A stretch of 64,000 bases of DNA from Marsupella aquatica. Its lineage: Eukaryota > Plantae > Marchantiophyta. The position numbers and the translations under genes were made by a program. Under the pieces are notes generated by a model, which saw only the letters and a list, made by a program, of their open reading frames with translations, had not been told where the DNA came from and ran no database searches. Below, one piece after another: positions 1 to 50,719 of this stretch (positions are counted from its first letter, which is position 1; each line of letters begins with the position of its first letter). The DNA is taken from contig OZ316894.1 of NCBI GenBank assembly GCA_973895155.1, forward strand, positions 18,514,805 to 18,578,804. Direction: 5' to 3'.

Positions 1-3000
1 GAACAAAAGTTTGTGAGGAGACCTTGGTACTTTCGGGATACTCGAATGATGTCCAAGGAAGCAGCTGACTGGGAGACACCCGTTCTTTGGGTTCAAGTGA
101 AGAAAACATAGAAGATTACACTCTCCTTTGGTCCAGTAATTTGGGTTGCCGCATGTGACTTTAAGAAGGGTCATGGGAAGGAAAAATCTGTCGCTATTGG
201 ATTGAGCTTCCTCACAATGTGTGGAAGCAAGGGTTTTGTGGCCCTTGTCGTGGACATGGATTTGTATGATCTCTCAACATTAGACAAATTTCCCAAAGAC
301 CCTATTGTGAAGGAAGTCGCGAGTACAATTGAGATGGAGATCTTCAAGCCTGAGTGGGTTGCTAATGTTGTGGATGATTCGAGTCCTTTGATGTTGCCGT
401 TTGTCCAAAAAGAGTATAAGAGACTCGTGGGTGAAGAGTTTAAACCCACACGAAGGATCAAAGTAAGGAAGCCAACCATTAGCGGGAGTGGCGCATCTTC
501 AGTTGCAAAAGGAGTTGATTGTGCTAGTGGGAGCGGGGGACATGGGAAAGGGAATTCCCAAGTAGAAGCTACCATGAGAGTGATTCTAGGTGAAGCACCT
601 CAATCTGTAGAGGCAAGCCCAAGCGCTACTGCAAGTGTTGGTCGTGGTCGAGGTCGTGGAAGGGGAGTTGTGGATGAATTGGTACCTGTCAAGGCAGAGG
701 TTCCATCGCCATCAACTTCACTTGCAAAGAAGAAGAGGACTGGTTGGATTGGAGGCACAGGAGTAGCTCTAGCTGCAGATTCAAGTGGTGCAATAAGCAC
801 TCCAGCTGTGTCAATGCATCAATCCAAAGAACGATTACCCCTTACCTCAGGTCCAACCTCAGCTGTCGTTAGCATTCCCCTGGTAAGTTTATTTGTCTAG
901 AAAAAATGAATGTTGGGAGCGATACTTGTATCACGCATTGCATTGAAATAATGAAAATGGTTTGCATTTTGAATTCTTCTTAAAATTCATTGCAAGCCAT
1001 GTTATTTTTCAGGGAGATGAGGAAGAAGAGACGTCGTTGGCTTCATTTGAGACAGATGCCATCAAGGCTGAACTTGCAAAGCTCATGCTTGAACGTAGAG
1101 TCCAGAGGACCAGTGTGCTTCTGCATGTCAATAATCTCATTTTTGAAGATGAGGGTGAGAATTCAACTTTAGTTAGACCTGTAGATCGGCTACATGTAGA
1201 GAACATCAAAATGTTGCTCATGAAAAACCCTTCCAACTTCATGGCTCCATTTGTTGTTGTAGTTGATCCAACAGATTGTCCCACAATTCATGAGTGGGAC
1301 ATTACTAAATCTAGGGTATGGAAGTATCGAGTGATTGGCGGTAATCATGGAGCTCGTGCAAAGGCTGAACTTTTCAAAATGTATGGAAAGCAAGTGTACG
1401 GTGAGATTGAGGCATGGGTTTACTCTGGTCTAACGAGACATGAGATCAGGATGTTGGCTTTCCAGCATAACTACGACCAGGAGTACCGTAAAACCATGAC
1501 ATCGATTGACAAAGTTCGTGCCTGTCACAATATTTTCATGGAAATGAATGTGGGGTCAACTAAAGAGGTGCGAGAAGCTTGTTGTAAGGAATGTATGCTT
1601 GATTACACTCCAGGTGTTCGTGACTCAATGGCCAAACATGACCCTACATTTCAGATTGCCTTTCGATCTGGGGAGATTTGGGAGCTCCAAGATAAAATTT
1701 TCTCTATGTGGCAAAAGTTTGAGATCCTTGGTCAAACAAAGCCAATCGTGGCCAAGTAGCTGTCAGCAACATCAAAAGGTAAATCAAAAGCTAAACCTAA
1801 ACCGCTGAGTGCAAGTGAAATCAAAATGAACAAGCTCTCTGGGCATTTCAATTTGAGGGTCTTCAGAGCTCTCCAGGGGCTTTCCAATCAGGAGCATGTG
1901 AAGCGACTCCTAAACAGAGTAATTGGAAAGAAAATCACTCTAGAACAAATGTTCAAAGAAGGTGAGACACTTAAGAAGTTGGCAAAGGTAAAGAAATTGT
2001 TCCTGCAGATTTCTGGTCAAAAAGATTGGGCAACATGCCGGGAAATGTTTCCCCAGGAAACTGATGTGAAAGTCCTTTCAACTTGGTGCGAAAAGCTCAC
2101 AGAAGCAGTAAGCACAATGTCCTTATGGCCTTTTGTTTTCAGTTATATATATTCAAAGCAAACATTTGAGATATTGAATGCAGGTAGTGTTACTTGTATC
2201 ACTGGTGGCATTCAAAATTTGTGTTTGGAAATCTTACAAAGAGTTTTGTTTAATGTGCAGTTCAAAATCAGTTCAAAGAGGAAGAAAAAAGTCATTTCTG
2301 GAAATGAATTTGATGAGGGCGTGGAGGTCGAGATTCCTTCATGCGACATCCCCTACGTCTTCAAGAACTATGTTCTTGAAGCAATTGAAAAACACAATCG
2401 GAGACTGAATATCTCATCAATTGCTACTGCTTCATCTCAACATCAATGGAAGAATGCAAATGGAGACGCATTCTCATATTCTCTTCATGTTGGAGATATT
2501 CGGAAACTAGAAACCTTTCTAGAGCCAAAACATTTCACTTTGGCAATTGCAGACATCCCGTACGGTTTCAATGCCCCTGGTTCTCAGTTTGACGAGGAAC
2601 CTTTCACTGAACAGGATGTAAATGAGATGGTTACTAATTTTGCTAAAATCACCACCTCTCCATTGTGGAGGTTTGTTATGATCCATTCCTTGCAGCAGAC
2701 AAATAGCGTTATGAGCGCACTTGAGAAGGTTTGCAATTGCGGAGTTGAGGCCGGTATATGGGAGAAGACAAACATCCATGAGCACCCTTCTGGGCCAAGG
2801 CTAGCTTGGGCTTTTGAGAACTGGTCAATTGGTTATTACAGTGAGGATGGAGTCCGAAAGAAGGAGATGTACAATTTTGCTCCTGATGAGTCCAGGGTGA
2901 ACATTGTGAAAGTTCCCTGTGTTACTACAAAGTGTGTGAGTCTATTAGGGTTTATTGTAAACCCTTATCAAAAACCAATTGCATTGGGTGATTGGTTTGT

Positions 3001-3376
3001 TAATCATTTCAGTGAGAAAGGGGACTGGGTGGCAGACCTTTGTTGTGGAACTGGGTCAACATTGGTGGCTGCACTTCTCAACTCTCGGAATGGGTGTGCT
3101 GTTGACAAAGGTGAGACTCAGGTAGAATTTTTGAGGAGTCGGATTATGACATTGGAATCTGTTTGGACTCTATACGATGAAGCACAAGTGTCCGGTGAAG
3201 GTGGCCAGGGACAAGAAGTTCAGCCTCCGGTTGGTGGGCAGTTGGGAGTCATTGGTACTAGCATTTATGTGGATACTGATGACCAGGAGGAGCCTGAAGA
3301 AAATGAGCCAAACATTGAAGAAAAGCTACCTAGAACACCGGACGACGGGGAACTCAATGATATGTTGTTAGATTAG
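1..3376 (+). pseudogene. ParB/Srx-like domain + beta-class N6-adenine/N4-cytosine DNA methyltransferase (multi-exon, 5' end outside window)
   Basis: One frame after removing GT-AG introns 883-1012 and 2108-2260; in-frame TAGs at 109-111 and 1757-1759. ParB-like VRPVDRLHVENIK...YRVIGGNHGARAK. MTase motif IV LHVGDIRKL...LAIADIPYG precedes NPYQKPIAL...SEKGDWVADLCCGTGSTLVAA..R...VD (motif I), the beta-class order. Confidence 0.85.
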
Positions 3377-6300
3377 ATGTGTGCAATAACACTATTGAGG
3401 ATTTATCAAGGCTTTCTATTAATGATTGAGAACCTTGATAAACATATCTCTATTTGAGGTTTGAAATGCAATTGGCGATACATGTATCGGATGTAGCATT
3501 CCCAACAACATTCCTACCTATCTGCACTTTTCCTACTCTAACTAGTCACAGTCATCTGCATCAATGATTTCCGTGTCGAGCATTGCTGCTTGGATGATTC
3601 GCTTTGTTTGTACTGGAAGCGTGTTGTTTGAGAGTAGTGCAAAATTATATGCATAAATTGCAGTTTCTGAGAGGCACAATGTGTCCTCAAGTAACTTGTT
3701 AGAGGATGCAGCTTTTTTAGGGTAATATTGACCTTCCATAGCAGACCCTTCTCGAGAATCCATTGTATACCATACAATTTTGATGTTCTCTGGAACATCT
3801 TGTACTTTGGATAGAATATCTATGACTTTTGCCATCCAAAATGGTCTGCTGTTTGGATCCCTATATGCAGCCACGCAAATCATTGCATATTTAGTGTTCA
3901 CTTCAAGATCTTTGAAGTCTCCCTCGACTGCTTTCTTCTTCCTTGTTCCAGAGTACATGACTGTTGTTGCACCTGCAATTTTATCTAGCAAGGTTGGCTC
4001 TATTTGTGGGGGAAGTGCATTTCTTGGAGTCTCTACTCCAATATTTGATTTTGGCCACGTCCAATCAAAAACCCATTGTCCTTCCTTCAAGTGGTGTTTA
4101 ATCACTTCTTTCTGGTTGTCAAAGAAACGGAGCCACCAAAGTTTATCCTCATCATCAAAATAATTGAATCCATCTTCAATTGATTTGCGATATTTCTCCA
4201 GGACTGCAACATGGTTGCAGAGAAGACGCTCGTCTCCATTGCCTCCGTCATCATGTTCATCATTCTCCATTGTTGCTCCGGTTGTAGATTTCAATGCCAT
4301 TTGTGCAGCAACCCACATGGTAGATGTGGGGATGTATCTAAGGAACTCCACTGCTTCTCCCCAACTTTGAGTGCTAGAAAGATGCTTTGCGTGAAACAAA
4401 GTCGAAGTTCCTCCATTCTCTCCTACAACCCTCTTCATCCTAAATTGCTTTTGACCACTAATACCATGTAGAGGACACAAAACATGCCCAATACCTCCCA
4501 TGTCATTGGGTTGGTCTTTATCCGACACAAACTTCTTGAAATCAGCAACCTCTTCAACAAAAATTATCTCAGCCTTTGGATTGTACGAATCCTTGAGAAT
4601 GTCTGCAAGACTATCCACCCGAAAAGCTTTTCGCTTATTTAATTTTGAGGAGAACTTGCTGAACATTTGGTCAATCTGATCATGGGTATGTCCAACCAAA
4701 AGAAAACCAACTTTGATCTTTTGGAAAACCCTCATCTCAACAAGCATATTCAAATATGCCATGAGAAATTTATTTTTATTTTCTCGAGGGGTATTATCAA
4801 GTTGTAGATACAACACTGGAGGGAGTGGACCTTCCCAACTATTTAAAATATGTTGGATCACATGCACTGTCAAGTTGGTGTCGTTGTGAATGTTTGGATA
4901 ATTCAAAAACACTTTTGATGTCAAATGTCCATTGAACACCAAACAACCCACCACATGTACCGGAATAAAGTACTTCTCGTCCATGTTTTTGGGGCACCTA
5001 GTGAAATGTGGCAACTCAGTCTTTTTTTGATCCATACCATCAATGCAGATCCCCAAATATTTTTCTGGACTCTTATAGCACTTGCTTCGGTGCTTTGCTA
5101 ATTTCTCGCTCTCAACTCCTTGTGCTTTCCGATGTTGGTTCAAAAGTGTTGAATATTTTCCTGTCAAATGAACGTCAATGTTTTTGTCAATAATAACCGC
5201 ATCACCAAACCAAACAAGTAAATAATGTAGTACTTAACATCAATCCTTTACTTATTTAAAGGTAGACACAACTTACATTTTTCTGCTTCAAATACTGCTT
5301 TGTCGCGAAGTGCTTTGAACTCTGTGCAAGGACCGCATGTGGAGAAGCGACTCTTTTTTGGAATATGCACCCTGGGGAACTCTTTGTTCCAGATGCGAAC
5401 AAACCAAGAATATGTGATCTCGGTTTCCTTCCACACCATAGTATCAGTCTTGAAAGCATCAAATACTTCAGCTTTCGTCCAATTGTCTGGTAAGTGGAAG
5501 ATGTCCTTGTTTGGAAGACTTTCAACATTTGACATGAAAAACTCATTCAACCATTGAACTAGTGAAAGATGAGTAACCGATTTTTCCTTGCAAAATGTGT
5601 CATTTTGAATACGAGAAAACGTATTCCTTGAGATTCTCTGCAGCCGATTATTTCCAACGGAAAATAATTTCTTGAAACCTTCTCGACAAAAAGATCTCCC
5701 GTCAACAATGTAACCGGTTGGACCACCGTGCCCACTTTTCAAACAGCCCCTTAGAAGTATGTTCTTCTCGGTCGATGATAAGCCATAATAGAAAGTCCGG
5801 TGTTTTGTCACTAAATCTAGACCAAAATATCTCAAACACAAATTATCACAACATGGGTACTTAAAAACTTCTTTCATTTTTTTTGTCTTTAAATTTTGAT
5901 TTGTAACATTATCTTTCCTCACAAGCTTGTCTCTCACTTTCTTGCTAAGCTCCTTTTGTTTCTCCATACTGTGAAATCCATGGAGTGAATGTTCACTCTC
6001 TTGTCTCTCTGCAACTTCCAGAATAGAGCCATTAGTATCTTTTGAGCTACTATCATCTGAAGATAGAGTGGGATTTCTCGGATCACTAAAGAGATGACTA
6101 TAGCTACTCTCGCCCTCATTTGTTTCCAAACATTCTGATACAACTTGTGCAATGGCTTGCGACTGTCTATTTTCCTCAACATCTTCCTCCTCACTTGACT
6201 CATCAGAAAACACTATTGGACTTCTTGGTTCTCTGTACATAATTCGGACTCCGCTAAAACTAGTGAGGCCTCGTCTAGCAACTTGAAGACGTCTAATTGG

Positions 6301-7769
6301 CTGTCTAGAAACACTCCTAGTTGCAGAAGTGGGTCTGGTGGTCATCAATGGTGTGTCTTGATTGTTCCCCAAACTTGTATTGTGTACACGAGCGGCTGCC
6401 ATTGGTCCATTGATTGGAGAAGCATCGAATAATCGTTGTACACATCTTCCCACTGCAATTTGAGATTGCGCAGATTCTGGACTTTGTAGTCCGTTGTCTT
6501 TGCTGTTGCTGGGAACCAGTTCTCTTTGACGCAATGCAGACGGCAATCCACGTACCGTTGTGTGTATTGTACCTTGCATTCTCACGTCTGTCCCAAGAAA
6601 TATCCTTCGCTGCACCTGTGGCAAAACTGATTCCCTCAAAGGCAATGCAAATGGCGATACACATATCGCTGTTTGCATTCGACCTTCTCATCTCTCCTTT
6701 GGCACCTGTTGGAAACTTGAAGCATCAATTGGAGATCCCAATCTCGTTGTCGATACGCGTATCGTCTTCTTGATTCCTTCACCATACCCAGGGATAGACG
6801 GTCTAAATCGACGTCTAGAACCTAAACCTTGGATAGAAAGCTTTTGCATCCGAGGGGAGGGAATGTTTAGGAGCCGACGTTTATCAGGTTTACTAGGTGA
6901 CACATAGTAAGCCCCAGGTTCTGGTTCAGAACTTCCATCAGAATCAGAGTCCGATATTTCGGGTACACTCTATTGAGAAACTGGGAGTAATTTGCGAATA
7001 TGATTTGGCAAACATCGACGACCATGAGGACCACCATTGGGGGAGGACTCAACTGAACTGGAGGGCGACCACTCTTTAGACATGGCTAACGTATAACTAA
7101 CTCTATACTGGTGGGCATTCCTGTCACAAAATGCTCTTATGCTCAAAAAACTCAAATAGACGCATAACTTTGTGAAACAAAATGGTGCAAAAAACTTAGT
7201 CGGCGTTGATGTATTTATAGTTTTTGGTGACCCTGAGCCACGTGGCTACTTCTGACTGGTCAGCCGCTACACGACAAAATAGATTGGGTGATTAAAAAAG
7301 GTTCAAATTAGTGTTTTAACGACAAAATTAATGTACATGTTAAGTGTTTCCTTCAGGGTGGATGCAATTTTTATTCTATTTGGGATATTGTATAGTGGAT
7401 TGCTTTAATCAACCATTGAGACAATTTGGTTCTAGATGCGATACAAGTATCGCTTTTTGTATTTTGGGGTGATTTTTTCAAATTGGTCCTGTAAAAGGTG
7501 CACATATTGTGCTTTGGAGTTATGTACCATAGTTTTGCTGATTCACAATCACTTTTCATGATGGTTAGGCGGAATGGTTACCATGATTTTGTCACTTAGT
7601 TTACTTTTTGGTTAAAAGTAGATCAACTGCGTTGAACTGTGTAGTAAATTTTGGGCAACTATGATGTAACTTTTCAAATTGTTGATAGTAAATTTTTTGA
7701 AAGGAGAGGTTGAGCTACTTTTGGAGTATATTCTCAAATGATGAATGTGGTTTGCGATACGAGTATCGC
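919..7769. repeat. Dispersed 16-bp palindrome GCGATAC-NN-GTATCGC (6 copies)
   Basis: Copies at 919-934, 3475-3490, 6654-6669, 6750-6765, 7438-7453 and 7754-7769, each with 0-2 mismatches to consensus. Confidence 0.8.
3542..7083 (-). pseudogene. Sola-like (DUF7869-type) DDD transposase
   Basis: Motifs ICIDGMDQKK, LYLQLDNTPRENKN, VGHTHDQIDQMFS; upstream Cys clusters (CCDNLCL, FCREGF, CGPCTE). ATG at 7083, in-frame stops at 6970 and 6688, intron ~5161-5276. Confidence 0.75.
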
Positions 7770-8092
7770 TAGTTGCTTTCCTTTATATGTTTGGGTTTGG
7801 AAGCAAAACTATTTTCCATGTGTACAAGTTGACGGAAAATAAGGATTTTCCATGTTGGAAACAAAGTTGAACGTTGTCAACAACAAACAGTACATTTCAG
7901 AAGTTTAAATATATATAATGAGGTAGTCTGTGGGCATTGCTCACCCCTTCAATGAAATCCCATCTACGATACAAAAATGTAACTATTGGGATATTGCGGA
8001 ATTTTGGATCGCTATTTGTGTCATTTCAACAAAATTGGCGAGAATGAAAAACACCCTTCTCTATGTGCGGAAATACTTCTCAATTGGTCTGA

Positions 8093-9105: not shown

Positions 9106-9140
9106 ACTTAAGGAGGCTGGAACACAAGACGGGAGTTTGA

Positions 9141-15540: not shown

Positions 15541-15634
15541 CGCTACGAGCTCTGCAAAGGTATCGTGAAATGCTCCCGATGCTTCTCCAGACTAGAGTGC
15601 CTTTATACTATAATGTCCCCCTTTATGTTAGTTG

Positions 15635-29409: not shown

Positions 29410-29518
29410 CACATATGTGTATTCCCCATTTTTGAAGTAATATAAGAATATTGTAATTTTTTTAGGAACCCATGGGCTAACTCAAACGTATATATCTGTT
29501 TTGTGTGTTGTATGATAG

Positions 29519-30377: not shown

Positions 30378-30427
30378 ATCAGCCTATTCATTAAAAGTGT
30401 ATTTTCTTTTGTTCACAAATCAGTCTT

Positions 30428-30520
30428 GAAATGTACACTTTCATGTCCCCAAATGTACACTTTAAGAAACCCAAATGTACACTTTTTGGTCTCTAAATGT
30501 ACACTTTATAGGCCAAATCA
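30428..30520 (+). repeat. Left subterminal repeats (aaatgtacactt) of element G
   Basis: Four copies next to the left TIR; same unit as at 50965-51290. Confidence 0.8.
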
Positions 30521-31850: not shown

Positions 31851-32303
31851 TAAAACCACATTTGAAGTTTGGATGGAGATCATCTCTGTCAATCCAACAC
31901 AAGTGGCCAACCACAAAGAAAATATATCTGCATACTGATCAGATTCATTGAGAAACCGTAAAGAGGAGATGGATATTGATACTGATGCTCTAATTGTTAA
32001 ACTTGCCCAGAGAGGCATGACTTTGTGGTAGCTCACTTGAATTGAGACTCATAGGTCTTGGGTTCAACTGTTGTGGCTGACACTTCCCAACTATTGTGGC
32101 TGACTCTTCCCTTTCTGTGGGGTTTCACAGATTTCCCTTTAAAAATAAAAAAAATAAAAATAAAAAATTGTTAAACTTGAAGTATAATTATACAGACTAT
32201 ATTATATCAAATTGATAAGGTCACATCGCTCAATCTAGACCTTGGCTAACAATGCGATCCATATTCATCAATCAAGATATCATCACCGAGTTCTTGTTGG
32301 ATC

Positions 32304-34240: not shown

Positions 34241-34243
34241 GAG

Positions 34244-34771
34244 TTGACCGCGCATGCTTGGGCTGAACAAGAAGTCTGGGAAGCAAAGGCACGGCTTGCT
34301 GATGTCCAATATGGACCTGTACTCAACAAAGGACAGAGCTCTAGAAGGCTGAAGAGTATGTTGGCTGAGGAGACGAAGCAACCAACCCCCATTCTGAAAG
34401 GGCTAAGCATGGTATTTGTGGAGGCGGGAATTGGAGAGGTTAAGTGCAAAGTGTACAAGTCCACGGTGCTTGACCTAGGTGGGACAGTGGAGGAGAATAT
34501 AACAGAGGACACCACTCATGTCATTACTAAGTCATATCCCAAAGCCTGCCGCAAGTTTGGGAAGGGAGACATTCGCTTTTATGTCATGTCCCATAATGTG
34601 TTTGTGGTTTCATATGCTTGGCTTGTGGAATCAGTAGCAGCTGGGAAGTGTCAAAACCCAATGGACTATGATCTTTTTGAGGCCTGGCCACGGAAGGGTC
34701 AGGATCCTTACAGAGAGGACTATGAGACAACAAGTGAGGAATGGGTCATTAGCGATTCTGAATCAGAGTGA
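34244..34771 (+). CDS. BRCT-domain ORF (5'-truncated), probable CACTA-B cargo
   Basis: ILKGLSMVF...LGGTVEENITEDTTHVIT...VVSYAWLVESVAAGK...DY matches the BRCT consensus. Confidence 0.75.
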   Translation: MTAHAWAEQEVWEAKARLADVQYGPVLNKGQSSRRLKSMLAEETKQPTPILKGLSMVFVEAGIGEVKCKVYKSTVLDLGGTVEENITEDTTHVITKSYPKACRKFGKGDIRFYVMSHNVFVVSYAWLVESVAAGKCQNPMDYDLFEAWPRKGQDPYREDYETTSEEWVISDSESE

Positions 34772-35303
34772 GGAGTAGTAGCATCAGTTTGGACACAAGT
34801 TTTTTTGTATAAATCAGATCATTGAAATAAATGTGATCTTTGAACTAATGTACCTTGTTATGGTTGGTGGCAGTTGGGCTTATTTTACTGTTGGCGGATT
34901 GTTGTTTCCTCCTGCCTGGGGGTGTCACTGTAAACGTACTGGGTGGGCTCAAATCTCGGCGGTGAGATATCTAATACCGCTCTCACACCTATGCCTATGA
35001 CTATACATGATTGGACTCTGATATGGTCATGGGTGTACATGCAGAGGCGGTACATTTGAGGACAGCTGTGGAGGTGGTGACACCCTCAAATATTGAGGAA
35101 TTTTGTGTCATTCACTTGACAATAGGTACACTACTCGCAAACCTGTTTTTTTCTTTTGGGGTGGTTTAGGGTTTGTGAGAATTTATTACACGTTATGTTA
35201 ACTCTTTTGGCACATACAGTCAGGGATATATGGAACACAAATACCACCATTAGGCATCCCTGTTCACTGCTGTCCATGACTGTAGAGCTTCCAGCCTGTT
35301 ACA

Positions 35304-38300: not shown

Positions 38301-39035
38301 ACTGCAGGAACAACTTTTCCAGGTTTCATGGAGTGGATCAGAGTGGCAATTAGAGAGCATCACGAGACCCACCCAGACATGGATGCAGACGTTTACCTAC
38401 TGTCTAATGCCCCTAGCCTGAAAGTGAAGACTTACAAACGGATGAGAGCATATGGGAATCACTTTCGAGTGAAGGATGGTGACAGTGCCTACAGGGTGAC
38501 GAATGACTGTGGGCTCATCACTGTATTTGAGCAACAGAGCCACAATCACGACAGGGCCTGGATGGAGATGGGATATGTGGGAGAATTAGTTGACATATGG
38601 GCTCTGGACTATGGGGCGGTGTCCAGTCCTGTGATTCTTATGAAAGGTTCATGGGTGCGGCAGGATTGGCTTGGTAACAGGGCTACCATGAAGAGAGACA
38701 ACGACGGTTTCTTGCTAGCCAATTTCAGAGGGAAATTGCCCGAATGGTCTGAGCCATTTGTGTTTCCCAGTCAGGTGGAGCAAGCTTTCTTCCTGGATGT
38801 GGAAGACTCCCCAGGTTGGCGTGTAGTGTGTCATAAACAGGCCAGGCAACGTCGGATGGAAGGATCAAACCTTGAGTTTCATTTACACTCTCATAGTGCC
38901 TTTGATCGTCGGCGTTCAGACCAAGTGCCTGTAGTTCATGATAGCGGGGACTTCATTCCTGTGACAAGGGTAGATGCATTTGCTGAAGGAGGCGAATTCA
39001 GAGATGCAGATGCCAACAGTGTGCCTGTGCCATGA
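35304..39035 (+). pseudogene. CACTA-B TnpD transposase
   Basis: CPCAIC..H, IHACPDGHVLF, RNVRLGLSLDGVNPF, ADYPA, DVMHIEKN, KSHDYH, FFDVMTHL, YPLERYM, EPFVFPSQ. Introns ~37128-37250 and ~38154-38269; in-frame TAG at 37599. Confidence 0.93.
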
Positions 39036-39189
39036 GTAATGTGAATTGTTTGCATGGACATTAGTGAGGGGAAGGATGTGTAATAAAGTAATTCTGAAGC
39101 AACACAGATGTATGGATGGATGCCTGGTCATTGTGGGTGCATTGTGTTATACGGGGTGACCATAGATGACATGTTTTTGTGGTCCAGTA

Positions 39190-42100
39190 GGATGGAACAG
39201 AGTGACACAGAGATGTGTGAGTATGAAAGGAAAGCTATGGAACAACGAGCAAACGTGAAAGCCAAAATCGCAAAACTGGATCTGGAAAAGGATGTGGCTG
39301 AATTGTAAGGGAACAATTCTCAACTACACCCCTCCGCTGAGTTTGTGTGACATGAATAGTTCAATGTCGCACTGAAATTGTGACTGTATTCTCATATTGG
39401 AATGTTGCAGAGCCACAGCATTTTCAAAGAAACAAAAGGAGTACGCAAGAAGGGTGACCAACACTATCTTTGGGCCTGTGCGTCGGAGTGACAGGTTGAG
39501 CAAGAAGGTGGTACCTACAATGGCAGAATGTGGAGATGACATGGATGCTGCACAGGTGGGTGCAGACACTAGACAAGAAGATGCAAATGATGAGTATTTT
39601 CCAGAGGAAATGGATGAGGATGGGGGTTATGAAGATGAATACATTGCAGAGCAGCCCCAAAAGAAACAGGTAAGTAGTTTTCCCAACAAGGTTTTGAGTT
39701 AAAAACTCTTATTTGGAGGTTTCATATGTTCAGTACTACACATATGTACCTTGCTTAGTTCCTGACATTGTAGTTGGTGATGTGATGCAGCGTCCTGCCA
39801 GTTCTGTTTTGCCTTCAAAGCCTGTGCATGCACCATACCAGCAGGGGGGGCTGACCTCTGATCAAGGTTGGCGAGGTGGTAGTAGTGGTAGATCCCAGGC
39901 TGGTGCCCAATACTATGGCAGGGGGCAAGCTCTAGGTTATGCCCGTGGTAGAGGCAGAGCAGGTCCAAACCCACAGTCTCATGGGTTTGGACGTCCACCT
40001 CAACCATGGGGATGTGAGTATATATCTATATGCCAGTTCTTTGTGAAGGCATGGCACTCCTGAATTTCAGACTGCATATCAATTTTTGACATTGTTTGGG
40101 ATGTATTGGATTCAGACAACATGAAATTCTGTCCACCTACCATTGCATGCAGATTCTGCCCAACCTGATTGGGCAAATGCTAGTAATGATCAGTTCCAAT
40201 GTCCACAAGGACAGACATGGGTTGAACCAGGTTGGGAGGATGGTGGTGGGTCGTGGAATGAATAAGGTTGGGAAGGTGGTGAAGGTAATTGGCAAGGATA
40301 TCAAAATACAGTACCTACAAACGCTGGAAGAGGGGCAGGTAATGTCTGATCTTGTTAGCAATGGAAGAACTCATTATATCTGGAGTCCATTCACGTGGGG
40401 GGGATTCTGCACATGTATAATGATAGGGAATGTATGTGTGCAGGTTGGACAGTCGAACCATCGACTCAAGTATTCACTAATGCCCCTATGCAGATGCAGC
40501 ACGGAAGGGGGACAGGTATGTTGGTGAATGTTCAGTTATTTTCCTACAGTTTGTACTTAGTTTTCAGTACATATGTTTGCACACACATACCTAGAAAGTG
40601 ACATCATTCGGCCCCTGTACTAGGCTGGACAGGTGGTCTAGGGCGCAACAATTTCAGAGTGTAGTCCTTGCACAGGCATCTACAGGCAGAGCTACAGGTA
40701 TGTATGTTTGAAGAATTTTTCTTGAAGTGAAGCATTGAATGTTGCCGTCATCCATTCTGCTGTATGTAGTTCTCAAGCATGAATGGCATTGTATTTTCCC
40801 AGGTGGCTTCAGAACCCCAGGTAGGGTGAATGAAGGGGTGGCCAATACAACGCCCAGTACTACCGAGAGCAGTGCACGAGGGGAGGTGACAAAGAAAGGG
40901 AACGTAAAGTTGAATGAGAGACAATGGGTGGATGCTGAGTGTCCTCGCAAGAACCGATGGCATGCTAATTTGAAAGCTGAAGTATTGCGTTGGTTAGATG
41001 TGAGTGTTATTAATTTTAAAAAACAGCATCCAAAAGATTGGAAGACTGTATGTGAAAATGTTGCTGCCAAATGGAATTATGTGAGCAGTGATGATGGCGT
41101 GGACATAGGTTGCCTAGAGAGTACAGCAGGTAAAATCATCAAGCAAGAGAGGTGGAGAATGCATAAGGCTTGGAAGGAAGGTGGGGAGAAGCCAGATATG
41201 CCTCCACCAGCCAGTTGTGATGATAAAGTGTGGGCAAGGTTAGTAGCTTATTTTGTAACAGATGCTTCAAAAAAGAAGAGTTCACAGATGACCGAGGCCA
41301 GGTTGAGTGTTCAGAACCCTAATCTGACAGGAAGGACCGGCACTGCACCGACAGCTAAACGTTTGGTAAGAATGAATGGCCTAGCTATGTAATTTATGCT
41401 ACACTATGTACTGTTTTTTAGTGTAAACCCATACATGTAAACTTTGTTTTGTAGTGTACGTTCCCTGAATATTGATCGATAACTTGTGTTTGCCATGCAT
41501 GTGCAGAAAGCCCAATTGGGGCAAAGCCCTTCAAAAGAAGAGTTGAGGGCTGAAATTGTGAACACCCAAGCTCAAGAGGGTGCATCTGAATCCTCCAAGC
41601 ATGTAATTTATATGAGTTCTACTTGGTAATTGAATGACCTGCGTTGAATTTCAGGTGTACACTGTATATAACATTGATTGTGCATATATTGCCCAACATT
41701 TCATATGGAGTGATTGAACCTATACCCCTGTGTCATGTAGGGAGGTGGATCTTCAGTTACAGAGATAAGTGGTCATTTGAAGGCTGTCGAAACATGTCTT
41801 CCAGAGATCAATGAACGTTTGAATTCATTGACTGACTTGTTCCATGTGAACTTCAAGACATTAATGGAAGCTGTTGTGTCGGTGAGAGATAAAATTGATT
41901 CCAATTCTGCAGGAGTTCCACCATCACCACTTGAGGTGGCAAAGTCGATGCACTCTTCTGGCATGCCAACGACATGTAGGCTTGAAGGTAAGGCCTTTAC
42001 AACTGTGTGGGATATGATTATTAAATGTATAGTTTGAATTGACATTGTTTGTTGAATGTGTTATTTTCAGTAACATATATTGTGGTTGTTGTGTCCATAG

Positions 42101-42897
42101 AGAATAAGACAGGTGCTACAGAGAAGAAGTATGTGAACCTGGCAAATACTCGCTGTAATTTAGAGGCAACAAAGTTGTAGTTTGTACAAGCAACTTGTTT
42201 GACAGAGGGCAGTCAACCATTTTTGGATGAGGATGACATTGGCAAGGGAGTGGATGATATCAATGTTGGGGCAAATGAGGATATTAGCAAGCATGAGAAT
42301 GATACCATTGAGCCACATTCATGCTATGTAGATCTTGACTCCATTGCAGAGATAAATGATTTGTAGAATGTATCATTCTCAATGACAGGTGTGCCTCTTG
42401 TTGAGATAAATCCAACCAAATAGTTAGTTGGTATGACACTCCCAGGTGATGAACCTGCTACTGTGACAGTCCTAACAAAGGAACCTACTGAGCCTAGCTT
42501 CACTACTGTGAAGAGAGGAAGCATGCGCACACGAAGCAAGTCTGCTGATGGGAGCAGAGCCACGTCAAAGGTTTCATACAAACCTCCAAGAATGGTGCTG
42601 GCAGAAAGATCTAAGGTGGAAGTGGGGAAAGCACCTAATGCTAAGGGACAAAGTGGCTTGTTAGCTGTTGATGAGAGTGGAACACGAGTAGGATTTGGCA
42701 GAGTGCAGGTTGGTTCCACAACGTTCCATGGCAAGAGGATTCCCCCAGGTTATTCAGTAGTGTTAGTCACATTACTAGTGAAACCTAAAGCTGTCCTTCC
42801 CATTCCAAACACAAATGATGATCCTCCTCAAAAGACACTTGAAGATGCTGCAGGTTCTTTGGTATTATGGCCAAGCAAGTTCATAGAGGATCCATAA
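39190..42897 (+). pseudogene. CACTA-B TnpA/Ptta-like multi-exon gene ending in a Tnp1-like domain
   Basis: Many short GT-AG exons; KDWKTVCENVAAKW, VWARLVAYF..KKSSQMTEAR; final exon VGFGRV...HGKRIPPGYSVV...LP.P...TLEDAAGSLVLWP. Confidence 0.7.
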
Positions 42898-43469
42898 CAA
42901 TGTCATGCCATTATTTGTTTGTAGTGTGAGTCATGTTATGTAGATTTTAGATGTCAAGAAGCAGTACAAGAATCATGTCCTCTTGGAGATTCATAGTATC
43001 ATGCATGTGCTTTCAGTTATCTCATCCTGCAGTCATCAATTATGAGTTCCTGTTTTGTCTGAATTACATTGATCACATTGTAAACTATTCCATTGGAATT
43101 CAAATGATCTTCATTTTTTAGCAAGATTGTGATTGTGTTTAATTCTTATGAATGTTTTATGTAGAATCTGCTCATATGATGCTTTGTTTCATGTGGATGT
43201 CATTCATGCTATGTTCATTTCTTGTATTCAATGTGTTATATTTCTAAAGTTAGAACATCAGGTTTCTATGTATTGTAATGTGGAGTGCTCTCTCTCCTTA
43301 TGAACTGTCCCTCTGTGTTCATTAGTCATGGTTATAACTTGCATGTGAACCTTATTAGTTATAAACATGAGTATATAGAGTCCCAAATGGTTCTGTTGTG
43401 TGATGCGGGCCAGGGTCTTCATTGGTCTTTCCTGTGACACTAAATGGTCACACGCTAGTCGTTGTTGAA

Positions 43470-43752
43470 TGCGGGTAAGTCATGTATGTGACTTACGATG
43501 TGACTCGCTGAAGTCATATTGTAGTCACGTAGAAACAAGGCTAGACTCCACAATAAAGTCACAGATCAGTCACAAATGGGTATCAAGCAAGTTGCAAAGC
43601 CCAGTATCAATAGTGACTTCCATTTTTTGGTCTCAACTTTTGCAACTCCAAGGGTCACAGCGTGGGTCAAGTCACGTTGAGTCACAATGAAGTCACATGA
43701 GCCAAAATGAGTCATATATTGCGGTCTCAGTTCACCTCGGATTCTTCTAGTG
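43470..43752. repeat. CACTA-B right subterminal repeats (AGTCAC/GTGACT) and TIR
   Basis: About ten gtcac/gtgac motifs in both orientations, ending in tagtg. Confidence 0.75.
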
Positions 43753-45237
43753 GCAATAGTCTTGTCAGTTTTATGTTTCTTCTTTACTGGCTTCTTCTCA
43801 GGTTCCTTCGACAGTGTCTCAGTTTTCTTGCGCTCCTTCTCTCTTTGTCTTCGCTTCCCTACCACTTGTTTGGAGGCTGTCCCGGCCGTTGTTCCTGCAG
43901 TCCCGGTTGTTGTCTCCTGAGATATTTTTCTAGGCTTCGGAACTTCTTTGTTAACAACTACTGGAGGCTTGTTCACCACTACTGGTGCAACATTTGTAGG
44001 CTTGTTCACCACTACTGGTGCAACACTTGTAGGCTTGGGTAATGATTCTACCCACTTTTTTGCATTATCCATTGCAAACTCCTCCGCAAATATAATTTTG
44101 TTGTCAAGGAAAACACCTGATTCCGATGATAGGAATCCTGCCTTGTCAAGCAAATTATTTAAAATCCATGTCATCGGAAATGTATAATTCCCTTGGTGTT
44201 TATGCATATTAAGCTTCACATATTGAAACCCATACATGATGTCAAGTGGAAGAATCCCCTTCACTCCAACAGTCACCTTTTGAGTTGAATACGACTTAGG
44301 GAAAAAGCCCATTGCCAACACGCCAAGTTCTCCAGCTGCAGACCACTCAACATTGAATTCTGAAGAATACGCCTTTGATGGTAGATGTAGTTTAACCCAT
44401 CGTATCCTTTCATGGAGCTCAAGAATGACGGAAACAAACCCTCTTCCTTCAATTCCAATGAAGACTACAGGTCCAAGTACAAGAGTCTCCTGATCTGCAG
44501 TTCTGACCTATATGCACAAAATGGGATCCCGTCTCGTTGACGTGCTAAGGAAATCAAAATCAACTCTGGAGAACTCAAGGCCCCAACAAAAATCTTCTCT
44601 GCTCTGCTCCAACAAGAATCCCTCGGAGCAATCTGCGTCTGAAATCTGTGGTTTCAATGCATTTAGATAGCTCCCTGCAATAGTCCCATCCAGGCATATT
44701 AGTTTGGAAATCTTACTTTTGTAATTGACAAAAATTGGATAGGGATCATCTCTATCCTCTATTTGGACAGCGATGATCTCTATCCAATTTGTAATAAAGA
44801 TCATCTCTGTTCGATGAGAGGATACTGACGATCGTTATTATCATCTCTATCCTCTACTTGGACAGGGATCATCTCTATCCAATTCCTAATAAAGGTCCTC
44901 AGCATCGTCTGATAGGACATCCTCTATCGTCAGTTTGGAAATAAATGATATCTATGCAATTGGACAAGGATGATCTCCATCCATTTGGATAGAGATCATC
45001 TCTGTCCAATTCCTAATAAAGATGACTATCTTCTATTTGGACTCTACTTGGATAGGGACCATCTCTGTCCACCACACAAATATTCAACTTGTTACTGGGA
45101 TACTCACTTGGATTGAGCGATTGAAAGGCTCTGGAATCCTCGAGGGCCGTCTCCACCACGTCCTCAATGGATGAGAGGTCTGTCTCCTCTGTTGGCTCAC
45201 TGATGAGACACACTGGAATAGGTCTGGATGGCTCCAT
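43753..45237 (-). pseudogene. 5' exons of the element-G ParB gene (separated from the 3' exons by CACTA-B)
   Basis: Same strand as 32304-34240; frame cut at the CACTA-B end (KKKHKTDKTIA|). Its intron carries the same palindromic repeat as the intron at 33350-33540. Confidence 0.55.
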
Positions 45238-46135
45238 CGTGTGACATGTGGCCTTATGGACATGTGGAGGATTGCAGAGCGTTAGATCTAGGGCAATTAA
45301 CGTGGCGGCTATGGGGATAAACTTTAGTGTGGAGGCAGAGCGAAGGAGTGCAGAGGCGTCGGAGTGAAGGAGATTGGAAGCGAATGAGGCGGAGGAGCGA
45401 GCAAAGGAGCGCAAGAGCAGGAGTGGAGAAGAGGAGGAGCGGACAGAGGAGGGAGGAGAGCGAGCGAGGAGCGAGGAGGGAATGAAGAATGAGGCCCAAG
45501 TGGGACCTCCTGCCTCCTTTACCCCCCCGAGGCAAGGCAAGGCACACTGAACATGTGGGAGGCCGAGGCGAGTGGAAAACCCTAAATGCACGGCTGCCCT
45601 AAAGTGCGCCGCCCGACCTAATCCACTCACCGTTGCTTAAGGCTAATCACGCATCGCCTTATCCATAAGGGCGATCTTCAACAACTGGTATAAGATACTT
45701 GGGGTTGTCCGGTTGGTCCTCATTTGGTATTTTCATTTCTAGATTTTTGTTCTGTTCCTCAACCAGGTCGGTTCATTACGGAGCCCCATTGAGATACTCT
45801 TGTTTTCCAGACAGAACATCTAGTTTTAATTTCTTCCACACCCCTGAAGCATTTAGTTTACCAGGTTACTGATAACTACCCCTTCAACACAGTATTTTAA
45901 TCCTTGGTTTGACAACATAAACTAAATTGAGTTTTGGGTTCAAGAATCATTTCCATTACAGGTAACTTTAAACCTAATTATAGAATTGTAGCATATTCCA
46001 TTGATATCCGCAAATTTAGGAATTACTATATCTAAGTTAAGGTTGAAGTGAAAAAATCCCAGCCCAACTCACGATTGGGATAATCTCAATCCAACCGTTC
46101 TTTGCTCAAACATTAAATTAGTGTGTAGAGTCAAT

Positions 46136-46790
46136 TGTCCGTACAGGGGTCATCCCTGTTTGCTATCTGGATAGGGATCATCTCTATCTGCTGTTTGGAT
46201 AGGGATGATCCCTGTCCAATATTTGGATAGGGATGATCCTTGTCCACCGTAGAGTATTGTAGAGGACCATATGAACTATAGCACTTTATTGGATCCTCTG
46301 GTTGGATAATGATCCCTATTCGCCGTTTGGATCCTCTGGTTGGATAATGATCTGTATTTGCTGTTTGGATGGGGATGATCCCTGTCCGCCATTTGGATAG
46401 GGATGATCCCTGTCCACCGTTTGGATAGGGATGGTCCTTGTCCGCCATTTTGATAGGGATGATCCCTGTCTACCCTTTCAATAGGGATCCGTGTCCGTGG
46501 TCGTTCTCCAGATGATCCCTGTCCGCCGTTTGAGGTATTTGCTTGATTGGACCCCAATATGAAAAGTTTCCTTGAATCATCCCTGTCAGTTGTTTGGACA
46601 GGGAATAGACCCGATCCACCATTTGGACAGGGATCAGGCGTGTCCGCCTTTTGGACAGTGACAGACACTATCCGCCGTTTAGGCAGAGATGATCCTTGTT
46701 CGCCGTTTGGACACTGACAGACCCTATCCGTCGTTTGGACAGGGATCATCCCTGTCCACCGTTTGGACAAGGATCATCCCTATCCGACGT
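46136..46790. repeat. Array of ~25-bp imperfect palindromes TTGGAYAGGGAT-N-ATCCCTRTCCAA (~28-bp period, ~20 copies)
   Basis: For example ttggatagggatgatccctgtccaa at 46195-46219. Further copies at ~33356-33540, ~44735-45070 and ~47990. Confidence 0.85.
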
Positions 46791-46977
46791 CTAAATTGGG
46801 ATCAGGGATCTTAGGGCTAGATAGGGACTTTTTGGGGACCTATTATTTTGCTTGATGGGGATAATCCCGATATGCGCACTGTCCTTGGAGAGGGTTGACA
46901 CCTATGTGCTTCCTAGTTGGGACCATTCTTAACTAATACTTTACATTTAAAATTGTGCAGGTGAATACGTTATAGGA

Positions 46978-49900
46978 ATGACCGGAATATTTTTGAGAGG
47001 AGACAATGTGATATTGACAAATGATGGTTACGATGTTGCGAGTGGGACAGTTCAAAAAGTCAACCCGCAAGATAGTGTTCAAAAGATATTGTTGAGAGAG
47101 AATCGAATGGGAGTTCTCATTGAGAAAGTTTTTGACCGAACCACAAAACTACCATTTCCGATGCCTCGGGCAGAAAACCTTTTTGATGCCATTGATTCTT
47201 GCGTTATTTGGGATTTGTCTTGCGCATATCTATCAACAACAACAAATTCTCAAAAACGCATTAGTGTAGGTAGTTGTTCAAATAGACCCGAGAGTAATTT
47301 GGAGAAAAATCCAATTGTAGAGGAGGACTCATCGACCACTCCGAGGCAAGGGGATGAGGTTGAAATGTTCATCTTTGGGTGTTGTGTAGCCCTTGGAGTT
47401 GTTTTCAATACAAATCCAATGGAAAGATGTCACAACATTTTACTTGGTGAATCACAGATCAGTGTGAGGGTCACTGATGTCATTCATGGGAGTAGGGTTT
47501 TACCTTACAAACATAGTGGGGCTGAAACAATTGACCAGGCAAAAGACTCATGGGTTCTCTGGGACGTGGCAGATGTCCGAAGTAGAAAGAGTTTCTCAAA
47601 GAAGGATGCGGGTGATGATATCAACATAGAGCGGAGTTTTGTTGTGGAGTCTCCCTCAGCTGAAATTTCTAAAACTAATTGTGACTATTTCCAACGGTCA
47701 AATTGGATGTCAGAGTTGGTCGAACTATACATCGGTTCAGATCGAACCAATAGGGTTGCCACGGGGACCATCACTGTGCCTCAAGAAACGGCGGCGGTTG
47801 ACGATGAAATGCTTGGTGAGGACCATGTAGGGATTGCTGTGAAAGATGTGGTGGAATCACAATACTTTCCCAACTTCCATAGGGGAGTAATTACTTTGGT
47901 TCGGTGGAGAATTGATTCAACAAAACTACTTGCAAATGGGAAATTTTTGTCGGACATTTTGGTTGAAGGTTCAGAGAGGATGGAGTCGGTGGATAGGGAT
48001 GATCTCTATCCAAATGTAAATGATAGGGGAATGTTGCGCACAAGGCCATACAATTTCAACAAGAGGACTCATGTAGATCCGATTGAAAAGAAGAGAAGGC
48101 TATTGGAAACCAAGGCAGTTTCAAAAACAACGGAAGCTTCGATTGATGAAATTAAAAGAGAGAATTGTTGCAAGCAGAAATGTTGTCTGACTATGCCAAG
48201 AGAAGACATAGAAGATATTCGGATAGAATTTCACGGGATGTCTAGTGAGTCAAAAACATCACACATTTTCAACCTCTTCCACTACAGAGAAGATGATGTT
48301 CGTGATAAGGGGCACCATGTTCTCAAGGGTATGGTCGTATGTAGACATGCATTTGCAATCATCCATGGCTTTAGCCACACAAAATATTATGACTACAAAA
48401 GGAGATGTGGAGGGCTGCAAAATTGGGTTCCATGGAAACACGGGCTCCATGAAAACAAGGTCAAATACCTTGCATGCACGAGCTCTGTTGGAGGATTTTT
48501 TGACTCGAAATGCAGAGCCCATGCCTCATATACCTTATGCTGGGGCTCATTGGACAGACTCCACTGAATATCGTCTTCCAGCATGTTACAAGAAGCTGGA
48601 GATTTTGGAAGATGTGAGAACAAAGATGAAGGAAGAGGGGCTTCCTCCAATTACAAAGAATACTCTGTACAAGATTTGGAGCAAATCATTCGCAAACTTC
48701 AGTTTCCATAAAGATGTTGCATTTGCCAAGTGTACTCTTTGTTGTGAATACAAAGATAGTTTGATGCGAGAAAGAAGGAAAAAAGAACGTGCTGAAATTG
48801 AAGAAAAACGAGCGCAACATCTTTGTGAGAAAATGTCACGTAGATATGTTTACTATGCTCATCGAGTGATGGCTAAGCAACATCCAGGGGAATATCTTTG
48901 CATCATTCACGACAAGATGGATCAAGCAAAGACGTGGATTCCAAAAATGGTCAGTACTCCTAAATCGCTTTCGGGTCATGGGATGCCGCTACCTATTGCT
49001 CTCACAGGGATGTTGACCCACGGAAGGGATCCAGGAGTCTATGCACACTTTAGTGTCACTGGCCTTTGGCCAGGAGATGCCAATTTCACGGTGACATCCT
49101 TGGCTAAGTGTCTTCGAGACCTTGAAGAGTACAATGGAGACAAGACAGGTGACATGTTGGATGACCTTTATTTGGAACCTCATAGACCTTTCTTTCAAGC
49201 CCTTCTTGACTTTGATGCATTTTTTAAGGGATATTTGGAACCAAAGAGTATTCCAATGAATAGGTATATTGGTTCTGAAGATGCAACCGAGAGTCAGACG
49301 GAGACGGTCTTCACCCAACTTGGTGAGGATCAAGGAGGGGACATGCATGGGGAACAAGGCAGTCCATCTTTCAAGCCCTTGCCAAGGCACCTAACATTGC
49401 AAATGGATAACTCAGCAAAGGATAACAAAAACCAGGCTGTCATGGCATTTTGTAGTGAGCTTGTGAGTAGAGGAGTATTTGAAACTGTTCAAATGTCTTT
49501 TCTTATGGTTGGTCGTACGCACGAAGATGTTGATGCACTCTTTTCGAAGGTATCATATCAAGTTCAGCACAAGGAAGTTGCAACTCTCCTTGCTCTTATG
49601 GCAGAGATTTGGGAATGTGAGAGCATTCATCCAGTTCCCAGATTGATACAAGAAGTTGCATCTTACAAAGAATATCTTCAAACTTTCAACGTTAAAGATA
49701 TTCAAGGTCACTCAAAACCTGTATCATTTCTTTTCTCTATGAGAGATAATGTACCAATATTTCAGTATAAGTCCCATGTAAAGCAACCTTGGGCTCCAGT
49801 TGGTGGAAGGTGCATTTGGGCAACAGATCTGACAACAAATTCCCTTCTTTTACCTAGTGGAGAGCCCTTAGCTAAATCCATTGGAGAGATACACAAAAAA

Positions 49901-50719
49901 TCTGAAGAGATTATCCCATTTCTTACCAAGTACCTTGATTTTTTGAGAAGGAGTTGCACTGATGAGACATCTATAGCATATAAGGAAAGATTTCCTCTTG
50001 TGAAATATTGGGAGAGAATTGTGGAGTTGTTGACAAATGGGCTTGCACTAGAAGGGGAGGGAAGTACTCAATTTCCCTTGAAAAATGGATTTTGGCCTAA
50101 GACTAACCATGGCACTGGTTACAAGGTCAACCAACCGGATCAAAGTGGTCCTCCAAGTGAAGATGAGGAGAATGCGGAGATGACGGCTCTTCAAAATGAG
50201 GTCTTGGAAGAGATGGAAGATCAAGCACCACCATTTATTGGATCTCGAGCTGAGAGAGAACAAGGACGGTGGATTCCCCTACAGGATATTTGTCAAGGGA
50301 ACTTTGTATTTCTTCGACCCGAGGATGACTGGGAGAATAAAAATGGTGGAGGTCATTTCTGGTTGGTGAGAGCTTTGGGTTCGGTTGACCCTAAGCATGA
50401 AGTCCCAACTACATCTCCAACAAACCCTCCTCTGCCTCAACAATATGCTCCAATGTTTCCAGTCAAATGGTGGAGGCCTAAACACTCTAAACTTGATGTG
50501 ACTGAGAGTGCACGGTATCTAAACTGCTTCATGTCCACTAAGACATGGGAGCGAGATCCAGGGTTTGGTGAGAACGCTCAACATTGGCAGTATGCAAATT
50601 CTGCAATGTATGGTTTTAAATCTGGCATGAAAGAAGAAAACATGGCGGGTAGAGGTTTGAAGATTCCTCGAAATGTTCTACAAACTATCCAAAGTTATCT
50701 CCAAAGGATGGACAAGTAG
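46978..50719 (+). pseudogene. Sola-like (DUF7869-type) transposase of element G with three N-terminal Tnp1-like repeats; one frameshift ~48400
   Basis: CCKQKCC, VCRHAF, CTLCCE, IIHDKMDQAK, LQMDNSAKDNKN, VGRTHEDVDALFS, homologous by eye to 3542-7083. ORFs 46978-48567 and 48245-50719 overlap. Confidence 0.8.

Follow-up and report, generated by a model that had tools for sequence, protein, structure and literature searches.

Two elements in the 64,000-nt window, the whole stretch of Marsupella aquatica DNA analyzed (GCA_973895155.1, OZ316894.1:18,514,805-18,578,804, forward strand), carry a ParB-like region and an amino-methyltransferase in one gene opposite a Sola1-type transposase, an arrangement shared with four metagenome contigs (L002, L003, L004, and L006). 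We give about an even chance to the reading, taken as a whole, that these elements, E1 and G, are decayed copies of Sola1-type cut-and-paste transposons, that they stem from two old lineages in non-flowering plants, and that the accessory protein acts on its own element. The ParB-fold part would recognize palindromes scattered through that element, the methyltransferase of the E1 lineage would mark the element DNA, more likely with 6mA than 4mC, and the mark would keep the element expressible despite host 5mC silencing.

E1 consists of a minus-strand DUF7869/Sola1-type transposase lying tail-to-tail with a plus-strand, spliced gene for a ParB fold and a beta-class amino-methyltransferase (Table 1). 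This convergent pair, described in the earlier note, is borne out by PF01555 and DUF7869 matches, by the protein folds, and by GT/AG splice sites at the accessory gene exon borders, whose coordinates are approximate. E1 had been taken as a whole element at 1 to about 8092; a likely right end is present, and the left end lies beyond the window, which leaves neither a TIR pair nor a target site duplication (TSD) visible for E1. The methyltransferase had been called complete, and its DIPY, QKP, and DLCCGTG motifs are indeed present; the ParB exon of the same gene contains an in-frame stop.

Table 1. Features of E1, G, and the elements nested in G (window positions)
Feature	Position	Strand	Evidence and remarks
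E1 accessory gene, upstream exon	112..881	+	36% / 31% identity to matching L001 / L004 exon; GT donor at 882
E1 16-bp palindromes GCGATACNNGTATCGC	919, 3475, 6654, 6750, 7438, 7754 (range 919..7769)	.	Five of six window matches of 14-bp core in E1 (0.78 expected)
E1 accessory gene exon, ParB/Srx-fold and helical domains	1013..2107	+	Structure; in-frame TAG 1757-1759
E1 accessory gene exon, beta-class amino-methyltransferase	2261..3376	+	DIPY 2552-2563, QKP 2969-2977, DLCCGTG 3035-3055
E1 transposase, DUF7869/Sola1-type	3542..6687	-	PF25273 E = 2e-50; intron about 5161-5276, splice sites seen
E1 probable right end	8060..8092	.	Inferred from resemblance to G terminus and switch to host retroelement PHD-finger reading frame
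G left end	30374..30411	+	CTAG duplication 30374-30377, TIR from 30378
G left subterminal 22-bp repeats AAATGTACACTTT	30429..30507	+	
G third gene, NIF/FCP1-type HAD phosphatase-like	30786..32138	-	Broken over two frames; PF03031 E 1e-5, 3e-7, above cut-off
G ParB and degenerate methyltransferase-like gene	32216..34226	-	Intron 33285-33558, TAG 33186-33188
G-specific 21-bp palindromes, GGAYAGGGATNATCCCTRTCC type	33359..48011	.	ParB-gene intron 33359-33535, intergenic 44737-46785, at 47991
Nested CACTA-like element with BRCT ORF	34231..43715	+	BRCT E 1e-7, Transposase_24 E 1.5e-4, tnp2-like ORFs
G transposase, DUF7869/Sola1-type	46951..50719	+	Split over two frames; PF25273 E = 8e-43; 38% to E1 core
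G right subterminal 22-bp repeats	50984..51269	+	
Nested TIR element	51294..60985	+	8-bp duplication CATAAATC, PHD-finger ORF, transposase-like gene
G right end	60994..61030	-	TIR to 61026, CTAG duplication 61027-61030

The upstream exon of the E1 accessory gene matches no known domain family. The methyltransferase exon matches PF01555 with E = 3.5e-7 (30.8 bits against the Pfam cut-off of 26.7) and has both the motif order IV ... QKP ... I and the beta-class fold, with a Foldseek E value of 9e-14 to CcrM. Its profile matches M1.HpyAVI, M.RsrI, and CcrM with E values of 1e-15 to 4e-14, the solved 6mA enzymes as a group scoring 1e-15 to 1e-13, and bdelloid N4CMT (2e-7) and PvuII (2e-4) rank behind them. 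This ranking suggests that 6mA is a more likely mark than 4mC. Motif IV reads DIPY as opposed to the textbook (D/N/S)PP(Y/F/W), and is putatively catalytic.

The structure and HMM searches proposed in the earlier note place PF01555 and DUF7869 above cut-off; the ParB domain has no Pfam match in either the E1 or the G accessory gene, and in E1 it is the structure that reveals the fold. The ParB/Srx N-terminal fold of E1 is confirmed by modeling: the AlphaFold model of the exon has a pLDDT of 93.7, a Foldseek match to Noc/ParB (E = 2.5e-5), and VIA Z scores of 10.4 to PadC (rmsd 2.9, 99 aligned) and 9.5 to KorB, the next unrelated row scoring 4.4. The GxxRxxA arginine patch is the CTP contact of ParB/Noc clamps. 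The box in this family reads GGxH[S/G/T]xxA with an arginine after the histidine in none of 49 rows, which makes a CTP-driven sliding clamp doubtful.

DUF7869 scores above the Pfam cut-off in both transposases. The E1 enzyme carries DGMDQ/QLDN/GHTH and is 65-73% identical to the L006 transposase; its spliced junction is likely a stop codon. The G transposase reads DKMDQ/QMDN/GRTH, with GRTH in place of GHTH. Compared by eye, LYLQLDNTPRENKNKF agrees with the Sola1 HMM consensus l.lysDncagqNknsf (PMC5751038), and the first Asp motif agrees loosely.

G spans 30378-61026 (30.6 kb) and is bounded by TIRs and a 4-bp CTAG duplication; two nested elements account for about 19 kb, leaving a net length of about 11.5 kb. 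The inverted arms (30373-30411/60993-61031) are 39 nt long and 92% complementary, with a TIR of about 30 bp and ATCAG termini. G sits in a CACTA tnp2 reading frame, and excising it in silico restores the host frame. The duplication fits the 4-bp TSD of Sola1, and since CTAG is palindromic a 2-bp TA or a 0-bp reading fits as well. No clear TIR pair was found at the ends of the CACTA-like insert, the transposase-like gene of the nested TIR element has no Pfam match, and the ORF at 43716-44507 has no similarity to the E1 upstream exon.

G was reported earlier to pair a transposase with an intron-containing ParB-type gene, and both genes do lie inside the TIR/CTAG-bounded unit. The second gene proves to be more than the ParB-domain gene then described: it is a distant homolog of the whole E1 architecture with a degenerate, half-deleted methylase. 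Its 5' end is interrupted by a nested insert, and an internal deletion at about 32365 removes the SAM-binding half (residues 347-768 of the Calypogeia homolog). Motif IV reads VDFN (VDF(N/S) in the G lineage) and departs from the canonical (D/N/S)PP(Y/F/W); with the catalytic motif lost, the G-lineage protein would act through binding only. The E1 and G accessory genes have no significant BLASTP similarity, and HMMs built from E1 relatives reach just E = 0.09-0.3 on the G gene. Their homology is supported by hhalign against the E1-family alignment, where the G ParB exon scores a probability of 57.7 (E = 1e-4), the next exon 80.6 (E = 1e-5), and the bridging Calypogeia homolog P0172 97.5 (E = 7.5e-12). 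With their stops or deletions, the window copies of E1 and G are probably dead.

Both lineages carry their own palindromes. A conserved 16-bp parS-like palindrome in E1-type elements is a new finding: it occurs at 54 sites in 7/7 E1-type sequences, counted in the same sequences from which the pattern was derived. None of the 54 falls in the conserved coding stretches, though these make up 67% of bases; the sites lie in introns of both genes, in spacers, and near the end, without clustering at the tips. Shuffled sequences yield at most 1-2 per locus, the remaining 55.9 kb of the window yields 0, and 148 kb from 15 bacterial control loci yields 12. Five of the six window matches to the 14-bp core are inside E1 (0.78 expected). 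L004, whose protein diverges most within the set, carries a spacer variant not shared with the others. The G-specific palindromes give 24 strand matches against 0.00 expected, and none lies outside G in the window. By analogy with ParB/parS and VANC, the ParB-methyltransferase protein likely binds the palindromes of its element; they could instead be transposase sites.

The pairing of the two genes recurs outside the window. A transposase follows the methylase gene in 4/9 metagenome contigs, tail-to-tail in L002, L003, L004, and L006, which are all of the close relatives with enough flank (4/4) and come, like all of L001-L006, from one assembly. The distant contigs L007-L009 (1.5-2.3 kb) contain no transposase and 1, 0, and 0 palindrome sites. 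Purifying selection on the methylase is strong and matches that on the transposase: dN/dS is about 0.06 (0.057-0.066) in the three of 15 pairs with measurable dS, the other 12 being synonymously saturated with dN of 0.12-0.27, and the transposase gives 0.08-0.10 in 2/3 pairs. The gene is multi-copy and not a syntenic host gene. The co-occurrence proposed earlier thus recurs, and linkage and selection support a TIR-transposon lineage of non-flowering plants with a regular second gene that combines ParB and a bacterial-type beta-class amino-methyltransferase. They also bear on whether the gene is passive host or viral cargo (Pack-type), incidentally paired with the transposase in this window, as the broken state of both window copies and the different gene orientations in E1 and G might suggest. 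Retention of the layout in 4/4 informative close contigs at saturated dS, together with purifying selection, largely refutes this for the E1 lineage; element-specific palindromes common to both genes and the position of the G gene inside a TIR/TSD-bounded unit also speak against it, and we consider it very improbable.

Whether the enzyme is catalytic is addressed by the family alignment of 106 domain rows. Motif IV retains D in 67/71, P in 67/71, and Y in 57/71 rows, QKP is present in 58/63, and motif I retains D, G, and G in 58/61, 58/61, and 56/61. Proline occupies position 2 of motif IV (DPPY) in 6/71 rows, and the family motif is D-x-P-Y. A different account takes the protein to be a non-catalytic DNA-binding helper that bridges palindromes for transposition folding or promoter autoregulation, with the methylase fold as a scaffold. 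The rarity of proline at position 2 and the placement of palindromes near the end and in intronic and spacer DNA are compatible with it, as is the G lineage, where motif IV is degenerate in a Calypogeia sister-subfamily homolog with an intact reading frame, indicating that the protein can persist without catalysis. Against a helper role, the six E1-lineage copies compared show no variation in D, P, Y, QKP, or motif I, the domain has the low dN/dS given above, and catalytic-motif positions are 80-95% conserved family-wide; we regard it as unlikely, if a serious contender.

An active enzyme need not counter host silencing. CpG observed/expected is 0.47-0.52 in the window copies and 0.48 in their surroundings; the copies are as CpG-depleted as their neighborhood and were not spared 5mC. 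This lack of a sign of protection fits a mark that restrains or times transposition (self-limiting or replication-coupling), the role Dam plays for IS10/Tn10. The anatomy expected is identical, and the solved enzymes closest to this family, CcrM and M.BceJIV for example, are solitary 6mA methylases with regulatory roles. The spread of sites across the introns of the two genes, with no crowding at the tips, instead fits whole-element chromatin control of the VANC kind, and we judge a self-limiting mark improbable.

Self-binding with an anti-silencing mark remains our preferred reading. Named homologs occur in Chara, Riccia, Calypogeia, Adiantum, and Ginkgo. A HMMER profile search returned 601 proteins and word-based protein searches one each, so the latter are uninformative on rarity. 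In a quick tree, E1 clusters with the metagenome copies (100) and Ginkgo with Adiantum (97); the land-plant rows fall together (94), and Chara stands outside them. The G-type row forms a long branch without placement, and no order of events is drawn. No relatives of the methylase or transposase were found in viral contigs. Prokaryotes gave 15 weak loci (best GTDB E = 2e-8) that match in the motif-I region only and have no ParB domain of the E1-family type, so no donor is named. More tentatively, and less likely than not, streptophyte Sola1 elements may since before the split of land plants and Chara have combined a ParB-derived reader of lineage-specific 16-bp palindromes in their own introns with a fused 6mA/4mC writer, forming an anti-5mC layer in non-flowering plants with reader-site co-evolution like that of VANC.

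Marchantia DN4MT1a/b and bdelloid N4CMT are likewise bacterial-type beta-class amino-methyltransferases in eukaryotes. They differ in being host genes with SPPY (TSPPY in DN4MT1), demonstrated 4mC activity, and no ParB; Ser occupies motif IV position 1 in 0/71 family rows. The suggestion that the transposons were a source of host 4mC/6mA writers found no link, DN4MT1 having TSPPY without extra domains against D-x-P-Y fused to ParB. Phage fusions of ParB with N6/N4 methylases share the domain order and the folds over their full length (A0A6J5MMM5 in BFVD, Foldseek E = 1e-12; phrog_67, E = 1e-13), but identity is 10-20%, the plant genes contain introns and additional domains (helical ones and one at the N terminus), and their ParB box is non-canonical. 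Arabidopsis VANDAL elements are Mutator-like, and we know of no ParB or methylase domain in VANC. The likeness to VANC lies in how it works: it is an element-encoded anti-silencing accessory protein with family-specific motifs in its own element, a function shown experimentally (PMC5735166), whereas that of E1 and G is predicted from sequence and models. As summarized for Bostrychia, Plavaka PAG2/PAG3 also combine a transposon-borne PF01555 methylase, a ParB-like domain, and inverted-repeat arrays proposed as ParB sites, but the transposase is EnSpm/Plavaka, the methylase-SET and ParB-2OG oxygenase fusions are separate genes, and the arrays are tandem and adjacent to PAG3 where E1-type sites are in introns (bioRxiv 10.1101/2025.02.11.637652).

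The closest system is Sola1-1_Ec32 of Ectocarpus, likened here by description, not by sequence. It has a Sola1-type DDE transposase, a 4-bp TSD, and an opposite-strand gene for a ParB-like domain and a 4mC/6mA methyltransferase, and its report already carries the self-marking hypothesis and cites similar proteins for green and red algal transposons (PMC12477816). The design is therefore already catalogued, and at that level the earlier claim of a new transposon family does not stand. The literature searched contains no report of ParB-methyltransferase cargo in land-plant Sola elements. Sola1-1_Ec32 differs in coming from a brown alga and in its 21.5-kb length, 282-bp TIR, and AACCG termini (about 11.5 kb net, about 30 bp, and ATCAG in G), and its description, as excerpted, contains neither a binding site nor a selection test (PMC12477816). 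The two-gene design is known from algae; the land-plant-type extension, the selection, and the candidate site are new. The idea of self-binding, self-methylating eukaryotic DNA transposons is a proposal of 2025 built on single algal consensus sequences. The design is extended here to land-plant-type DNA with selection on the methylase as strong as on the transposase, and the candidate recognition site allows both binding and methylation to be assayed directly. An active enzyme of this kind would be an overlooked origin of 6mA/4mC signal in the genomes of bryophytes, ferns, and gymnosperms, and might serve as an epigenetic writer targeted by sequence.

The E1 accessory gene, in the left-hand Sola1-type element, is followed by a DUF7869 transposase on the opposite strand that ends ~165 bases downstream of it; the window includes the right end of E1 only. 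The last exon exceeds the Pfam cut-off for PF01555, and the methylase motifs follow the beta order (DIPY, QKP, DLCCGTG). An AlphaFold model of the protein (pLDDT 86.3) matches CcrM, M.BceJIV, N4CMT, M1.HpyAVI, and M.RsrI in Foldseek (E 1e-13 to 1e-9), and phage ParB-methylase fusions match it along the full length. The N-terminal domain modeled separately (pLDDT 93.7) matches Noc/ParB, with a VIA Z of 10.4 against PadC compared to ≤4.4 for unrelated rows. Another conserved N-terminal domain of E1-type genes, upstream of the ParB-like one, has no Pfam match (window 112-470; metagenome loci L001:832-1188 and L004:579-959). These results bear out the earlier reading of E1 as a transposase paired with a spliced ParB gene fused to a beta-class methyltransferase.

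Features of the E1 and G elements and their surroundings
Feature	Position	Strand	Details
E1 accessory gene	exons ~112-881, 1013-2107, 2261-3376	+	GT/AG splice sites; single in-frame TAG, 1757-1759
PHD-finger frame, then purine tract and LTR-like repeats	8098-8325 and 8502-9107		
Copia element	15634-20151		LTRs of 156 nt, 99% identical
SET-like ORF	28585-29406		PF00856 E 0.003; just upstream of G-interrupted CACTA tnp2 gene
G	30378-61026		bounded by TIRs and CTAG duplication
NIF/FCP1-type HAD phosphatase-like gene	30786-32138		in G
CACTA-like insert nested in G	~34231-43715		
BRCT-domain ORF	34232-34768		at edge of CACTA-like insert
Open frames	43716-45636	-	between CACTA-like insert and G promoter region; contain G palindromes
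TIR element nested in G	51294-60985		ends CTCGGGGGTCTCACT; 8-bp duplication CATAAATC
Tandem repeats	51840-52700		in TIR element
Multi-PHD-finger ORF	54589-55263		in TIR element
Long transposase-like gene	55750-60335		in TIR element; neither Pfam nor PHROG match

Taking out G, the second Sola1-type element, restores the CACTA tnp2 reading frame. G minus its two nested inserts measures ~11.5 kb and contains a NIF-like ORF, a ParB gene (minus strand), a transposase (plus strand), and 22-bp subterminal repeats. The E1 and G transposase cores are 38% identical. The G ParB gene has one stop, shares 43% identity with a protein from Calypogeia fissa, and lacks residues 347-768 of that homologue, which aligns with the entire helical and methylase part of the E1 family (hhalign, probability 97.5) and has VDFS as motif IV. 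This bridge indicates that both elements carry one accessory gene type, with motifs that look intact in E1 and degenerate in G, and the pairing claimed for both elements is real. The NIF/FCP1-type gene is a possible third accessory gene of G; it would be notable for a transposon to carry the fold of a Pol II CTD phosphatase. The 43716-45636 frames are possibly 5' exons of the G ParB gene and have no similarity to the E1 upstream exon.

A HMMER search returned 601 representatives (E up to 0.001), and both domains are present in 25 of the best 150 of these. Among 30 clusters looked up, the 10 named all come from non-flowering streptophytes (Chara 3, Riccia 3, Adiantum 3, Ginkgo 1). By these names the window would come from a non-flowering land plant, perhaps a bryophyte. 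Two homologues, P0068 and P0126, carry extra domains, SAM (sterile alpha motif) or Tudor-like, that hint at fusion to chromatin readers or at chimeric gene models. A metagenome scan gave nine loci with E1-type methylase relatives, six of them close and from a single assembly. The transposase lies tail-to-tail with the methylase in four of the six (50-73% identity), and in the other two the contig stops ≤360 bases past the methylase stop codon; the three distant, short contigs have no transposase. Of 15 methylase pairs, 12 have saturated synonymous sites; the three measurable ones give dN/dS 0.057-0.066, and the transposase gives 0.08-0.10. The linkage proposed in the earlier note recurs, with the genes under selection, and for the E1 lineage these figures exclude that the methylase is a passively carried passenger or a single host gene. 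For the G lineage, linkage is seen in one copy, G itself.

A 16-bp palindrome recurs in every E1-type sequence: GCGATAC-NN-GTATCGC in E1, GCGA(G/T)AC-NN-GT(C/A)TCGC in five close loci (L001-L003, L005, L006), and CCGATCCAAACATCGG in L004. The joint pattern, derived from the same sequences in which it was counted, has 54 matches in 7/7 E1-type sequences (shuffle maxima 1-2), none of which falls in the 67% of bases that are conserved between copies. E1 sites 6654 and 6750 lie within or adjoin a 5' part of the transposase frame that is not conserved. The remaining 55.9 kb of the window has no matches, and bacterial control loci have 12 in 148 kb. A G-specific 21-bp palindrome flanks the CACTA insert on both sides and is found nowhere else. 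The E1-type palindromes resemble parS in length and form and constitute a new candidate recognition site, which the transposase could alternatively bind in place of the ParB-methylase protein.

The accessory protein most likely reads the palindromes of its own element, as putative binding sites, and would methylate that element's DNA. Motif IV Asp, Pro, and Tyr, QKP, and motif I are retained in 80-95% of family rows, with Pro at motif IV position 2 in 6/71; the ParB box lacks an arginine after His in 49/49. A rival is that the protein acts by binding only, as it would in the G lineage. Motif IV does not determine which base is methylated and the solved sequences nearest to the E1 methylase are 6mA enzymes, so 6mA is modestly favored if the enzyme is active. 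By analogy to the Arabidopsis VANDAL anti-silencing proteins (VANC), methylation would counter host silencing; alternatively, the mark may limit the element itself. CpG o/e is 0.48 across the window, and the decayed E1 and G copies are CpG-depleted like neighboring DNA.

The window consists of nested plant transposons (copia, LINE, CACTA, gypsy-type PHD). The copia element is a recent insertion because its LTRs are nearly identical. The PHD-finger frame and following repeats are probably the end of a gypsy-type element interrupted by E1, and the SET-like ORF is possibly CACTA cargo.

Assignment to Sola1 draws support from the length of the TSD, from the TIRs, and from agreement by eye with the published HMM consensus. 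The claim of a new family is not supported as stated, since PMC12477816 already describes the design: Ectocarpus Sola1-1_Ec32 (4-bp TSD) encodes, opposite its transposase, a 1104-aa ParB-like plus 4mC/6mA methyltransferase protein, for which binding and modification of the element that encodes it are proposed, and similar proteins are cited for green and red algae. Bostrychia Plavaka elements are described in bioRxiv 10.1101/2025.02.11.637652 as having accessory genes of PF01555 and ParB type, together with arrays of inverted repeats. Iyer 2016, in the portion available, names chlorophytes, chytrids, and haptophytes among eukaryotes with methylases linked to ParB, and the present type is absent from that list. 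DN4MT1 and N4CMT differ from the E1-type family in both motif and architecture. The literature covered contains no report of ParB-methylase cargo in land-plant Sola elements. The E1/G type is a streptophyte member of this recently described kind, to which it adds a candidate recognition site and two subfamilies (E1 and G).
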